Virus genome (UHGV): UHGV-1704341
DNA from: a virus
DNA: 12,853 bases
Reading direction: 5' to 3' (one strand)
Positions 491-6,978 of the stretch are shown here, in pieces. Under the pieces are notes generated by a model. It saw only the letters and a list, made by a program, of their open reading frames with translations. It was not told the origin of the DNA and made no database searches. Positions within the stretch are counted from its first letter, which is position 1. Every line of letters starts with the position of its first letter. Position numbers and translations under genes: made by a program.

Positions 491-1165
491 TTAGGTCTTT
501 ATTTTGTATCTTCTTGGTTTTCCCGAGAAAATCACTGTACCAATTATAGAGCAATTACCGTTGATCTTAATGTAAGGTTCAGGCCAGTTTGGGTTTAATG
601 CTTTGAGGTAACGCTGTGTTCCATCTTCTATCAACCGCTTGAAGGTGGTTTCGCCTGTATCGTGCATCAATGCAATAACGTCGTCACCGTGGCAGGCAGG
701 GACTTCAGGATCAACAAAAATCATGTCTCCTGGGCGGTACTCATCAATCATTGAATCACCAATCACCCGCAAGATATAAGTCATTTCACCACAGGGTACA
801 GGGCAGGGATAAGTTTCTGCTGTGCTCAAATCAACCTCAGAATAACCAACTTCTTTCCATGCTCCGGCCTGTACCCATGATATGACAGGGACTAACGTTA
901 TTTGTTTGTTAGTGATTGAAACATCAGGTTTTTTTGTGATGTTCGTTGTCTGGTGTTCTTGATCAAGCCATCCGACAGGCAGGTCGAAACATTTTTCGAT
1001 GTGCCGTGCCATGCTGTCACCGATATTTTTAGTTGCACCATCTCCCATAAACCTGCTGGTCTGGGTCGGCTCGCGATCAATCATGGTGGCAAAGGAAGAA
1101 TTCCCGCCAACACCATCTCTCAGTTTTCTGGCGTTAGACCGCCGGATGTCATGGACGGATGTCAT
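491..1165 (-). CDS. CI-type phage repressor (N-terminal DNA-binding region plus C-terminal S24 LexA-like peptidase domain)
   Basis: 224-aa ORF. C-terminal half carries the S24 autocleavage signature (VIGDSM, then an ...IFV.P... block) typical of CI/LexA/UmuD. N-terminal part ends ...LPVGWLD as in phage repressor HTH domains. Divergent to the Cro-like gene across an operator region. The start codon lies inside a 13-bp tandem duplication (see findings). Confidence 0.88.
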   Translation of the reverse strand: MTSVHDIRRSNARKLRDGVGGNSSFATMIDREPTQTSRFMGDGATKNIGDSMARHIEKCFDLPVGWLDQEHQTTNITKKPDVSITNKQITLVPVISWVQAGAWKEVGYSEVDLSTAETYPCPVPCGEMTYILRVIGDSMIDEYRPGDMIFVDPEVPACHGDDVIALMHDTGETTFKRLIEDGTQRYLKALNPNWPEPYIKINGNCSIIGTVIFSGKPRRYKIKT

Positions 1166-2354: not shown

Positions 2355-3305
2355 ATGAGCACTAAATTAACCGGCTATGTATGGGATGGTTGCGCAGCGT
2401 CAGGCATGAAATTATCCAGTGTGGCAATTATGGCCCGCCTGGCTGATTTCAGTAATGACGAAGGTGTGTGCTGGCCATCAATTGAAACCATTGCCCGCCA
2501 GATTGGCGCAGGGGTGAGTACTGTAAGAACGGCTATCGCACGGCTGGAAGCAGAAGGCTGGTTAACGCGTAAGGCGCGTCGCCAGGGTAACCGCAATGCG
2601 TCGAACGTCTATCAGCTTAACGTTGCAAAGCTTCAGGCTGCGGCACTTTCTCAACTGTCAGATTCTGACCCGTCAAAATCTGACGCATCAAAATCTGACC
2701 CGTCAAAATTTGATGCGTCGAAATCTGGCAAAAAAGCGGGTTTTCACCCGTCAGAATCTGGCGGGGATCCGTCAGTAAAATCAAAACATGATCCGTCAGA
2801 TAAAAAACCTTCTCGTCCGGACGCTTCGCAACCGGACACGCAGAAGGCTGAACAGGATTTTTTAACTCGCCATCCTGATGATCCTGATGCGGTTGTATTC
2901 AGCCCTAAAAAGCGCCAGTGGGGAACGCAGGATGATTTGACCTGCGCACAGTGGCTCTGGAAAAAAATCATCGCCCTGTACGAGCAGGCCGCCGAATGTG
3001 ACGGCGAGGTGGTACGTCCGAAAGAACCGAACTGGACAGCTTGGGCAAATGAAATTCGCCTGATGTGTGTACAGGACGGTCGTACCCACAAACAAATCTG
3101 CGAGATGTACAACCGTGTCAGCCGCGACCCGTTCTGGTGCCGTAACGTGCTCAGCCCGTCGAAGCTGCGGGAAAAATGGGATGAACTTTCCCTGCGCTTA
3201 TCGCCGTCCGTCAGCACGTACACAGAAAAACGCGAAGACCCGTACTTCAAAGCCAGTTACGACAATGTGGACTACAGCCAGATCCCGGCAGGATTCAGGG
3301 GGTGA
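2355..3305 (+). CDS. Replication initiator, lambda O-like (C-terminal domain similar to lambda O; distinct N-terminal domain)
   Basis: 316-aa ORF. The C-terminal stretch WGTQDDLTCAQW...NWTAWANEIRLM...DGRTH...FWCRNVLSPSKLREKW parallels the lambda O C-terminal domain as I recall it. A pentapeptide-repeat linker (SDPSK/SDASK) is encoded by the iterons. Confidence 0.85.
   Translation: MSTKLTGYVWDGCAASGMKLSSVAIMARLADFSNDEGVCWPSIETIARQIGAGVSTVRTAIARLEAEGWLTRKARRQGNRNASNVYQLNVAKLQAAALSQLSDSDPSKSDASKSDPSKFDASKSGKKAGFHPSESGGDPSVKSKHDPSDKKPSRPDASQPDTQKAEQDFLTRHPDDPDAVVFSPKKRQWGTQDDLTCAQWLWKKIIALYEQAAECDGEVVRPKEPNWTAWANEIRLMCVQDGRTHKQICEMYNRVSRDPFWCRNVLSPSKLREKWDELSLRLSPSVSTYTEKREDPYFKASYDNVDYSQIPAGFRG
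2665..2810. repeat. ori-like iteron array inside the O gene, followed by an A-rich tract
   Basis: Four 15-bp repeats (tctgacccgtcaaaa / tctgacgcatcaaaa / tctgacccgtcaaaa / tttgatgcgtcgaaa, 2665-2724) with internal dyad symmetry, three further ccgtcag repeats (2748-2799), then an A-rich stretch (2800-2807). Same arrangement as lambda ori within O. Confidence 0.6.
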
Positions 3306-3307
3306 TA

Positions 3308-3790
3308 ATGAGCCTTTTGAATGACGTTCAGAAATTCATTGAAGCCCATCCGGGGTGTACTTCCGGAGACATTGCGGATGCTTTTGCAGGTTACTCACGG
3401 CAGCGCGTTCTGCAGTCAGCAAGCAAGTTACGTCAGAGTGGGCGTGTGGCTCACCGTTGTGAAGGGGATACACGCAGACATTTCCCGCGCCAGGCTGAGA
3501 TATTGCAGGAGCCGGAACCAGTTTGTGAAACCAGACCTGTGCGCAATTTCTATGTCGGCACTAACGACCCCCGGGTGATTTTGTGCCTGACCCGCCAGGC
3601 TGAAGAACTGGAGTCCAGGGGCTTATTCCGTCGAGCTGCAACGGTGTGGATGGAGGCATTCCGTGAAAGCCACTCCCAGCCAGAACGAAACAATTTTCTG
3701 GCGCATCGTGAGCGGTGCTTACGGAAAAGCAGCAAGCGCGCTGCATCGGGTGAAGAGTGGTATCTGTCAGGGAATTACGTGGGGGCTTAA
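3308..3790 (+). CDS. Hypothetical protein in the position of a helicase loader (possible winged-helix N-terminus)
   Basis: ATG 3308 follows a G-rich SD-like stretch (aggggg) and sits 3 nt after the O stop. 160-aa product shows no recognisable similarity to lambda P or DnaC-type loaders. Stop overlaps the next start (TAATG at 3788-3792). Confidence 0.55.
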   Translation: MSLLNDVQKFIEAHPGCTSGDIADAFAGYSRQRVLQSASKLRQSGRVAHRCEGDTRRHFPRQAEILQEPEPVCETRPVRNFYVGTNDPRVILCLTRQAEELESRGLFRRAATVWMEAFRESHSQPERNNFLAHRERCLRKSSKRAASGEEWYLSGNYVGA

Positions 3791-4443
3791 TGAGTAATAA
3801 ATATTGCCAGGCGCTGGTGGAACTGCGGAACAAACCAGCCCATGAACTGAAGGACGTGGGCGATCAGTGGCGCACGCCGGACAACATTTTCTGGGGAATT
3901 AACACCCTGTTTGGCCCGTTTGTTCTGGATCTGTTCACTGACGGTGATAACGCCAAATGTGCTGCGTATTACACGGCGGAAGACAACGCGCTGGCGCATG
4001 ACTGGTCAGAACGTCTTGCGGAGCTTAAAGGTGCTGCCTTTGGTAATCCCCCATACAGCCGCGCCAGTCAGCATGAGGGGCAATACATCACCGGCATGCG
4101 TTACATCATGAAGCATGCCAGTGCCATGCGTGATAAGGGCGGGCGCTATGTTTTCCTGATCAAAGCTGCCACCAGCGAAGTTTGGTGGCCGGAAGATGCA
4201 GACCATATTGCTTTTATTCGCGGGCGTATTGGTTTTGAACTGCCTGCCTGGTTTATCCCGAAGGATGAGAAGCAGGTGCCGACAGGAGCGTTCTTCGCTG
4301 GTGCTATTGCTGTTTTCGACAAGACCTGGAAGGGACCGGCAATCAGCTACATCGGGCGCGATGAACTTGAGGCATGTGGTGAGGCCTTTCTGGCGCAGGT
4401 TCGCCAGCAGGCGGAAAAACTGGTCAGGGAGATGGCGGCATGA
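3790..4443 (+). CDS. Phage-type N6-adenine DNA methyltransferase (Dam family)
   Basis: Contains ...W.TP...F... near the N-terminus, NAKC..YYT, and the catalytic motif FGNPPYS, which are typical of phage Dam-like methyltransferases. Translationally coupled on both sides. Confidence 0.75.
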   Translation: MSNKYCQALVELRNKPAHELKDVGDQWRTPDNIFWGINTLFGPFVLDLFTDGDNAKCAAYYTAEDNALAHDWSERLAELKGAAFGNPPYSRASQHEGQYITGMRYIMKHASAMRDKGGRYVFLIKAATSEVWWPEDADHIAFIRGRIGFELPAWFIPKDEKQVPTGAFFAGAIAVFDKTWKGPAISYIGRDELEACGEAFLAQVRQQAEKLVREMAA

Positions 4444-4766
4444 CGACGTTAACTCAATGCCAGCAGCAGGTGCTGGATATGCTGATTTCTTACCAGAAAG
4501 AACGTGGCTTCCCGCCAACCAATCAGGAGGTGGCAACCATGCTGGGATACCGTTCAGTGAATGCAGCGGTGGAGCATCTTCGCGCACTGGAGAAAAAAGG
4601 CGTCATCACGATAAAGCGTGGCGTGGCCCGGGGGATCACGCTTCATACCGCAGTGAAGGACGACGACAGCGAAGCGGTCGGTATCATCCGCGCACTGCTT
4701 GCCGGTGAGGAGAACGCTAGGTTGCGTGCAGCCCACTGGTTACATGAGAGGGGCCTGAAAGTATGA
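4440..4766 (+). CDS. LexA N-terminal DNA-binding-domain-like protein lacking the S24 peptidase domain
   Basis: Residues 1-70 align with the E. coli LexA DNA-binding domain as I recall it (LT.RQQ.V.D.I....G.PPT..E.A..LG.RS.NAA.EHL.AL..KGVI.I..G..RGI.L), including the recognition-helix core NAA.EHL. The product is only 108 aa and its C-terminal tail is unrelated to the LexA catalytic domain. Confidence 0.65.
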   Translation: MTTLTQCQQQVLDMLISYQKERGFPPTNQEVATMLGYRSVNAAVEHLRALEKKGVITIKRGVARGITLHTAVKDDDSEAVGIIRALLAGEENARLRAAHWLHERGLKV

Positions 4767-5982: not shown

Positions 5983-6978
5983 GTGAACGTGAGAGCACTA
6001 CTGACCCCTGAAATTGCCCCGCGTATGGGGATCGTATTGTTCAGACCAGGTTCAGAGCTGATGCCCCTGTTTATGCAGGGGCGTGTCCTGCTGGAGCCTG
6101 AGCCGGAACGTTATTCATCTTTCGCCAGTGGTGCCGTTCCGGCGGCATCACAACCGCTGGCGGATGATCCTGCCGTTCGGGCCGTGTTCCGCAATGAGGC
6201 AGTGATCCGTCGTGCTGGTGGCGTGGAATGTCTTGAAAGCTGGTTACTTCGTGAAAAAGGCTGCCAGTGGCCTCATTCCGACTGGCACAGCGAGAACATG
6301 ACCACAATGCGACACGCGCCGGGCGCAATCCGTCTGTGCTGGCACTGCGATAACCAGCTGCGCGATCAGTTCACGGAACGGCTGGAATCAATGGCAACGG
6401 ATAACTGTGCCCGCTGGGTGTTGTCTGTTGTGCGTCGGGATCTCGGTTTTGATGACAGTCACGTTGTGACAATGCCGGAACTGTGCTGGTGGCTGGTTCG
6501 TAATGATCTGGCGGATGTCTTACCGGAAAGCGCAGCCCGTAAGGCACTGAGATTACCGAAGCCTGTTGTGCCATCTGTCACCCGGGAAAGTGACCTTGTG
6601 CCTTCGGTTCCTGCCACCAGCATCATCCAGGATAAAGCGAAAAAGGTGCTGGCGCTGAAAGTGGATCCGGAGTCGCCGGAGTCTTTTATGTTACGCCCCA
6701 AACGTCGCCGCTGGGTTAACGAAAAGTACACGCGCTGGGTTAAGACACAGCCGTGTGCATGTTGTGGAAAGTCTGCTGATGATCCCCACCACCTGATAGG
6801 CCACGGTCAGGGGGGAATGGGTACAAAAGCGCATGACCTCTTTGTGTTGCCTTTGTGCAGAAAGCATCACGACGAGCTGCATGCGGATACCGTGGCATTT
6901 GAAGAGAAGTATGGCTCCCAGTTGGAGCTGATATTTCGTTTTATCGATCGTGCGCTGGCAATAGGCGTACTGGCGTAA
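5983..6978 (+). CDS. DUF968-like (YdfU-like) nin-region protein with C-terminal Cys/His-rich motif
   Basis: 331-aa ORF with a GTG start directly after the upstream stop. C-terminus CACCG...HHLIGHG...LCRKHHDELH resembles the DUF968/YdfU family found upstream of Q in lambdoid prophages. The exact start is uncertain. Confidence 0.55.
   Translation: MNVRALLTPEIAPRMGIVLFRPGSELMPLFMQGRVLLEPEPERYSSFASGAVPAASQPLADDPAVRAVFRNEAVIRRAGGVECLESWLLREKGCQWPHSDWHSENMTTMRHAPGAIRLCWHCDNQLRDQFTERLESMATDNCARWVLSVVRRDLGFDDSHVVTMPELCWWLVRNDLADVLPESAARKALRLPKPVVPSVTRESDLVPSVPATSIIQDKAKKVLALKVDPESPESFMLRPKRRRWVNEKYTRWVKTQPCACCGKSADDPHHLIGHGQGGMGTKAHDLFVLPLCRKHHDELHADTVAFEEKYGSQLELIFRFIDRALAIGVLA

Follow-up and report, generated by a model that had tools for sequence, protein, structure and literature searches.

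The 12,853-nt stretch of UHGV virus genome UHGV-1704341 analyzed here (the window) carries, at positions 2355 to 3790, a lambda-type replication module made of an O-like initiator gene and a 160-aa neighbor, yfdN. We propose that this module is complete with its initiator alone and that O would recruit the host DnaC-DnaB complex, or else PriA, through a short C-terminal tail resembling that of DnaT, YfdN being an optional accessory and not a helicase loader. Judging from sequence, we are evenly divided on this reading taken as a whole. A preliminary description of the same DNA had recognized the O-like initiator with an origin inside its own gene and had offered two explanations for the missing loader, namely, that the 160-aa protein was a divergent loader or adaptor or that the replication module was incomplete.

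Both open reading frames (ORFs) were as that description had them (316 aa, and 160 or 162 aa for the second). It had also seen no likeness of the second gene to lambda P, DnaC or a replicative helicase and no such gene elsewhere before Q, and indeed, neither Pfam nor direct comparison with lambda P revealed a P, DnaC or DnaB homologue among the genes between cI and Q. In addition, tblastn with lambda P, DnaC, DnaT and DnaB gave no match in 80 related 12-kb loci. Nor does a loader gene lie elsewhere in the complete related genomes of SfIV and LLS. SfIV carries the same O and YfdN pair at 95.6% identity in a genome of 54 genes; a helicase or loader is absent from its annotation, and a Pfam scan of the unannotated SfIV proteins likewise found none. 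This phage is UV-induced, forms plaques, is propagated lytically and lysogenizes (PMC3851460). The O protein of LLS is 86% identical to the window O over residues 1 to 100 and has similar iteron-encoded repeats, with a methylase gene directly next to it. The 42.9-kb LLS genome contains neither a YfdN-family ORF nor a homologue of P, DnaC or DnaB; LLS is a lake-water isolate that plates on K-12. Klebsiella phage KpF5 and phage 716R3 combine the same N-terminal domain and lambda-like C-terminal domain as the window, again with a methylase gene next. According to Zheng et al. 2025 (PMC12315714), O-only modules are found in 34 of 314 lambdoid phages, about a tenth, by a mechanism "not yet understood," and under the definition given there, the window, SfIV and LLS belong to this class. 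Since the same module serves plaque-forming phages and O-only modules recur, a complete O-only module of the CPS-53/SfII/SfIV/mEp460 type fits better than an incomplete one. The loader-less origin is real, recurrent and already in the literature, where it is unexplained.

The resemblance to DnaT lies at the very end of the protein. The window O ends in SQIPAGFRG and E. coli DnaT in SQIPPGFRG, that is, eight of the nine terminal residues are identical, in both cases at the extreme C terminus. DnaT orthologues (71 to 99% identity) keep this ending, 98 of 105 finishing in IP(P/R)GFRG and the other 7 in IPxGFRGAK. When host proteins were included as a BLAST control, the tail of the HannyBb O protein matched DnaT residues 160 to 179 at 14 of 20 positions (E = 3.8e-7). 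Across loci, the initiator consists of a winged helix, an iteron-encoded linker, a C-terminal domain and a tail of the form V/Y-D-x-x-I-P-x-G-F-R-G, and the domain that bears the tail may be lambda-like, of the Phg_2220_C kind, of a kind that we call type B or genuinely DnaT-type. Three initiator types upstream of YfdN differ in their N- and C-terminal domains and have their last 12 to 27 residues in common. The window O has no match to Pfam DnaT (PF17948) and no similarity to DnaT outside its C-terminal part; the DnaT N-terminal domain and acidic linker are absent. DnaT likeness is probably what lies behind the automatic annotation of O-like genes as "primosomal protein (I)."

Two further proteins were seen in this context. 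At one phage locus (L404; IMG/VR UViG_2597490225_000006), the ORF ending at about 2716 encodes a 276-aa phage protein whose C-terminal domain and tail are unmistakably those of DnaT (…FISPDWKPDPDF…QWQQKLARS…EIPPGFRG); its N-terminal domain is, by eye only, YdaU/DUF1376-like. To judge from this protein, the DnaT C-terminal domain appears to be itself an interchangeable module of phage initiators. The other, P0282, is a natural DnaT-DnaC fusion and is without the tail.

The tail seems to be selected as a peptide, beyond any selection on the junction sequence, because its residues are kept across divergent initiators despite synonymous codon changes and because in one lineage three more residues come after it. 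In locus L100, the tail is not at the gene end. A role as mere nucleotide-level linker or Shine-Dalgarno element was considered and found insufficient, given the synonymous changes and the position of the L100 motif off the gene end.

We then compared the presence of the tail with the genes that follow the initiator. All loci collected were pooled and duplicates removed, leaving 181 distinct initiator C-terminal halves. The tail was present in 141 of them, and what lay downstream was nothing in 53, YfdN in 79, an E. coli-type DnaC in 9 and a P or DnaB-like gene in none. The 40 without a tail were followed by a DnaB-like together with a divergent DnaC-like gene (31), a divergent DnaC-like gene alone (1), P (1), nothing (6) or YfdN (1). 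The E. coli-type DnaC proteins downstream of tail-bearing initiators are 47 to 49% identical to E. coli DnaC over their full length. In the host, dnaT precedes dnaC just as the tail-bearing O gene does in these phages (O(tail)-dnaC), which suggests that the host operon may descend from such a phage module. Direct succession of a tail-bearing initiator and an E. coli-type DnaC was noted at L355, L365, L369, L373 and L375 and at 12 further IMG/VR loci.

The same pattern is found within single domain types. A type-B domain with the tail and without a loader occurs in PhiR40_1, whereas type-B domains without the tail are accompanied by DnaC-like and DnaB-like genes in Stx2_KH16-043 and in 75 of 75 IMG/VR loci. 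Similarly, lambda-like domains carry the tail and lack a loader in the window, KpF5 and HannyBb, whereas those that work with P share a different terminal peptide, D/T-N-T-D-W-I-x-G-V (lambda O, L003; O of Klebsiella phage 5 LV-2017, L347). The terminal peptide of lambda and LV-2017 fits with the idea that the extreme C terminus of O specifies the loader used.

We tentatively propose that (V/I)-x-x-x-D-x-x-I-P-x-G-F-R-G at the C terminus serves as a portable motif for docking on the helicase-loading machinery of the host (DnaC-DnaB, or PriA), a peptide common to DnaT and to many initiators of enterobacterial phages and mobile elements with at least four unrelated types of C-terminal domain; we regard this as a possibility about which doubt somewhat outweighs belief. 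O would bind the iterons and open the origin. Host DnaC, and not a phage P-like protein, would deliver host DnaB, O itself recruiting the DnaC-DnaB complex. The physical link would be the DnaT-like tail, docking on the same partner as DnaT's own tail, and O would in effect be an origin-specific DnaT analogue. Parsimony would favor DnaC(-DnaB) as the partner: E. coli-type DnaC is found alongside the tail in phage as well as host operons, and selection on the tail persists where the phage encodes no partner. PriA would be the alternative, and the DnaT C-terminal domain is known to dock on PriA by a conserved hydrophobic interface (PMC13377028).

Several points weigh against this proposal. The samples are query-biased and phylogenetically clumped, consisting of related prophages, and represent few independent evolutionary events. 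The Erwinia-type initiators (L091, L092 and L099, from Erwinia and relatives), whose YfdN-like partners are the most divergent (25 to 26% identity), have no tail and carry a C-terminal extension of about 70 residues in its place; no loader was found within 6 kb on either side of these loci. They are an exception to the tail rule. For DnaT itself, the role of residues 154 to 179, or the partner of the last 25 residues, was left undefined (PMC4132743, PMC5778457, PMC13377028), and the most recent structural model (2026) favors recruitment of DnaB/DnaC by the N-terminal domain of DnaT. A profile of the lambda-like C-terminal domain aligned weakly but in register with DnaT residues 92 to 179, tail included (hhalign E = 1.4e-3, probability 17%), a faint hint that the C-terminal domains of O and DnaT might be homologous. 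Because the GFRG codons of the tail fall within the stretch where ribosomes bind for the following gene, some of the conservation may be at the nucleotide level. Finally, in the window's own lineage (lambda-like C-terminal domain, 98 to 100% identity), YfdN is present at 72 of 78 loci and deleted or frameshifted, sometimes cleanly, at the other 6; given these numbers, it may have a lineage-specific role in replication.

An unlikely but by no means negligible alternative is that the module is indeed O-only and host-reliant but that the tail is not the link. The O C-terminal domain would then contact DnaB or DnaC directly, in the manner of iteron-plasmid initiators, or replication would depend on transcription/R-loop or recombination routes (RecBCD-Chi, RecA D-loops, PriA-PriB-DnaT), and the tail would serve in oligomerization, single-stranded DNA (ssDNA) binding or turnover. 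The window contains 9 Chi sites against 0.53 expected, 7 of them on the plus strand, and this count groups the prophage with LLS in the Chi-rich class without a Rec module (Zheng et al. 2025, PMC12315714); RecBCD is also reported there to enhance LLS growth. Moreover, DnaT residues 154 to 179 contribute to cooperative ssDNA binding in vitro (PMC4132743), and the Erwinia-type initiators manage with neither tail nor loader. This alternative is, however, at odds with the finding that the tail never accompanies P or a phage DnaB and is seen on at least four domain backgrounds whenever there is no loader or the loader is of the E. coli DnaC type, as well as with the apparent selection at the amino acid level in phages that themselves supply no partner for the tail. 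In any case, since the window is Chi-rich and falls in the Rec-less class of PMC12315714, recombination-dependent, PriA/DnaT-mediated reloading by the host probably matters for these phages.

As for the earlier idea that YfdN is a divergent loader, or an adaptor from O to host DnaB replacing lambda P, we consider the reading improbable, and a loader function in particular is very unlikely. Profile searches and structure prediction did not yield any loader family. The only Pfam match of YfdN is PerC (PF06069; 34.5 bits against a gathering cutoff of 22.6, residues 98 to 149), its phrog_1324 match is a "transcriptional activator" (E = 1e-76), and RefSeq calls it a "PerC family transcriptional regulator." AlphaFold (pLDDT 76.8) predicts, in the 162-aa numbering, a winged helix (residues 1 to 62), a disordered linker (63 to 89) and three PerC helices (90 to 148). 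There was no sequence or fold similarity to lambda P (PF06992), DnaC/IstB (PF01695), DnaD-like or DciA loaders, no similarity to lambda P itself in direct comparison, no relative by sequence among solved structures and no match among defense families.

What speaks for YfdN as a loader is mainly its place. It occupies the position of P, and YfdN-like genes follow the initiator within a few bases (2 to 4 nt past the O stop codon) down to 25 to 42% identity, in Salmonella, Erwinia, Entomohabitans and one unidentified host; the 72 of 78 loci mentioned above also count in its favor. On the other hand, its domains are a winged helix and PerC, and LLS and KpF5 are viable without it while having closely related initiators. 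Among 79 Phg_2220_C-type initiators from IMG/VR, the next gene is a methylase gene in 70 and YfdN in 8, and clean deletions of YfdN occur in the window's own lineage. Its distant homologues also reside in P4-like islands, away from initiators. YfdN seems to be an optional cassette, placed where the replication genes meet the nin region. In lambda, the gene in the corresponding slot is ren. Most likely, YfdN is a DNA-binding regulator expressed from the early-right operon, an optional accessory to the initiator. We also considered that the O tail and YfdN form a binding pair, as the tail is common to the three O types upstream of YfdN; this was dropped, given the methylase gene next to 70 of 79 tail-bearing Phg_2220_C initiators.

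YfdN may start at GTG 3302 (RefSeq, 162 aa) or at ATG 3308 (160 aa), the latter being the likely start because homologues begin with MSL. A set of 1.8 billion proteins contained 158 representatives of this small family at 50% identity, all from Enterobacterales where an organism is named. Like the PerC and Pch proteins (PF06069), which activate LEE1/ler transcription in enteropathogenic and enterohemorrhagic E. coli, YfdN has C-terminal helices that match the PerC model above its curated cutoff; unlike them, it also bears a winged helix at the N terminus and finishes in a conserved LxGxxVG. The papers found report no function for YfdN. In K-12, yfdN has been called a PerC homologue, and a yfdN deletion strain served as the background for Pch assays (PMC5931665). 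The island homologues (L095 to L098; Salmonella and Logan contigs) are encoded at 6001 to 6480, are 24 to 28% identical to YfdN, and in one case bear the name "ANR family." They are flanked by a KilA-N/pRha antirepressor-like gene and an AlpA-type HTH_17 gene, with an ORF of more than 1100 aa without a Pfam match downstream and no adjoining initiator.

There is scarcely any chance that the replication module is incomplete or decayed and cannot replicate autonomously, as the preliminary description had allowed, for although about 10 indels separate this copy from a near-identical prophage and the whole prophage may be defective, O and yfdN are both intact here save for one in-frame 9-nt duplication in O, the same module drives plaque-forming phages such as SfIV, which has the same gene pair, and the O-only class is recurrent (34 of 314; PMC12315714).

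The prophage used for this comparison, that of E. coli ECONIH1, differs from the window by 0 to 1 substitutions and by about 10 indels or short tandem duplications of 1 to 55 nt (Table 1). Relative to ECONIH1, the indels put cro/ymfT, ymfL, a spanin gene, an HNH gene and terL out of frame, and terS has lost its start. ymfL is split into ORFs 1440-1721 and 1597-2010, and the 5' end of the repressor gene is altered by a duplication of 13 nt at its start. The O protein of ECONIH1 has 313 aa. This unusual, indel-only spectrum points to either a defective prophage copy or a sequence artifact, and the analysis of the module is unaffected either way.

The initiator and its origin were for the most part as first described. 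The lambda-O-like C-terminal domain was recovered with high significance (Table 1), and the N terminus holds an HTH_36 winged helix, presumed to be the iteron-binding domain. Pfam Phage_rep_O (PF04492), on which lambda O itself scores 123 bits, was not matched by the window O. The iteron array lies within the linker-coding stretch of the gene. TRF reported an array of 15-nt period at 2664-2727 (score 86; score 100 at period 30), which a repeat search extended to about 2657-2805, and the core is present in 5 copies, all inside 2667-2777, against 0.06 expected; 5 copies were reached in none of 200 shuffles. The A-rich tract reported earlier held up only as far as A6-A7 runs are concerned (2730-2735, 2802-2807 and 2961-2967): an extended AT-rich stretch or strong unwinding element was not found, the minimum GC content in 40-nt windows being 0.40. 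No DnaA box (TTWTNCACA) was found in the whole window, and DnaA-dependent loading was dropped as a candidate on this ground. A profile search of PDB sequences with the alignment of the O C-terminal domain gave no match, and a single-sequence AF2 model of this domain (pLDDT 47.6) was too poor for use.

Table 1. Coordinates of the replication module and of other features in the window
Feature	Position	Strand	Remarks
LexA-family cI-like repressor gene	491-1165	-	
cro/ymfT, cII-like ymfL, ymfM-like ORF			In this order after the repressor gene and before the O-like gene
O-like replication initiator gene	2355-3305	+	316 aa; phrog_391 "replication initiation O-like," E = 1e-131
N-terminal winged helix, HTH_36 (PF13730)	2421-2564	+	Residues 23-70; 46.5 bits against a cutoff of 25
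Iteron array, presumed origin	2657-2805	none	15-nt period; core GAYSCRTCRRWA; partly palindromic GTCAGAnTCTGAC
In-frame 9-nt tandem duplication	2872-2889	+	ATCCTGATG twice; adds DPD to O; absent from ECONIH1
Lambda-O-like C-terminal domain	2883-3194	+	Residues 177-280; 40% identical to lambda O 179-270, E = 4e-24
DnaT-like C-terminal tail	3261-3302	+	DNVDYSQIPAGFRG
yfdN (160-aa gene)	3308-3790	+	PerC family
Dam, LexA DNA-binding domain protein, RusA, KilA-N, DUF968/HNH genes			Between yfdN and Q (Pfam)
Q gene	6992-7744		Lysis genes and terminase beyond
Chi sites	1693, 3813, 4169(-), 5065, 6214, 6485, 6614(-), 8286, 8790		GCTGGTGG
Indel sites relative to ECONIH1	1143-1168, ~1374, ~1672, 2872-2889, 8176/8177, ~9110, 10388, ~10705, 11908-11940		

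The window as a whole represents the early-right, lysis and terminase section of an E. coli lambdoid prophage of the CPS-53/SfII/SfIV/mEp460 type. Its 2355-3790 segment is matched in 2732 of 5426 complete E. coli genomes, about half, and is 95 to 96% identical at the DNA level to the replication genes of SfIV, SfII, SKA5, PhiR49_1 and others. The O and YfdN pair also occurs in SfII, mEp460, the PhiR phages and SKA5, mEp460 sharing O and/or YfdN at about 95%. In the CPS-53 remnant of K-12, the order is yfdO-yfdN-yfdM; yfdO is truncated, and 2355-3305 is its full-length counterpart. RefSeq names the O-like protein "helix-turn-helix domain-containing protein." Just upstream of O, two ORFs overlap in different frames, 2007-2345 (112 aa, ymfM-like, phrog_1170) and 2186-2365 (59 aa, DUF4222), of which the former is annotated in SfIV and the latter by RefSeq in ECONIH1. 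In the nin-like region, positions 4440-4766 encode a 108-aa protein consisting of a LexA DNA-binding domain without a peptidase domain, which is conserved in SfIV, mEp460 and a distant Salmonella locus.

The module itself is thus common and annotated, being present in about half of the complete E. coli genomes and in published phages, with the 160-aa gene annotated as yfdN, and its class was flagged in 2025. What is added here is the DnaT-type terminal peptide and its co-occurrence pattern. A literature search of incomplete coverage, by which novelty is not established, found no link between O-only phages and DnaT through such a tail, and the passages of PMC12315714 consulted make no mention of it. 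Two open questions meet at this point, namely, how O-only lambdoid phages (34 of 314) replicate and how DnaT recruits DnaB/DnaC in replication restart, which was called "unknown" in a 2017 review and in a 2026 structure paper (among PMC4132743, PMC5778457 and PMC13377028). The conserved C-terminal peptide of 7 to 14 residues offers one cheap experimental handle on both. If the peptide is a docking motif, DnaB loading by O-only lambdoid phages, which have no loader, would be accounted for, the long-missing contact that hands the preprimosome from DnaT to DnaB/DnaC would be identified, and the dnaT-dnaC operon of the host would stem from a phage O(tail)-dnaC module by domestication.

Among known systems, the closest in layout is lambda O/P/ori-lambda. 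Both have iterons inside the initiator gene, homologous C-terminal domains (40% identity) and an O-like gene placed after a cII-like gene in the early-right operon, and in both, the next gene starts a few bases from the O stop codon. They differ in the N-terminal domain (HTH_36 in the window, Phage_rep_O in lambda), in the lack of P and of a pronounced AT-rich segment in the window, and in the terminal peptide, which is IPAGFRG in the window and NTDWIxGV in lambda and Klebsiella phage 5 LV-2017, whose O proteins depend on P. With LLS and the O-only class (PMC12315714), the window has in common an O homologue without helicase or loader in a Chi-rich, Rec-less context. The LLS O also shares its N-terminal domain (86% identity) and tail with the window O, but its C-terminal domain is of the Phg_2220_C type and LLS has no yfdN, whereas the window has a lambda-like C-terminal domain and yfdN.

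To E. coli DnaT, the window O is linked by the SQIP-GFRG peptide at the very C terminus and by the weak, in-register match of the preceding helical domain. However, DnaT lacks a domain for sequence-specific DNA binding and reaches forks through PriA and PriB, and the window O, which lacks the DnaT N-terminal oligomerization domain and the acidic PriB-binding linker, is not classed with the DnaT family. Iteron plasmids use a single initiator, such as pSC101 RepA, R6K pi or RK2 TrfA, together with iterons; this initiator recruits host DnaB or DnaC, and since the plasmids bring no loader, helicase and loader both come from the host, as would be the case for the window O. The origins of these plasmids usually use DnaA boxes as well, unlike the window, which has none. 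DopC is an O-derived HTH_36 protein with a DnaT C-terminal motif, DopC and DopE being domesticated lambda O/P genes (Brezellec et al. 2017, PMC5509034). DopC differs from the window O in being chromosomal, in having no iterons and in having a P-derived partner, and it shows that O-like and DnaT modules are interchangeable.

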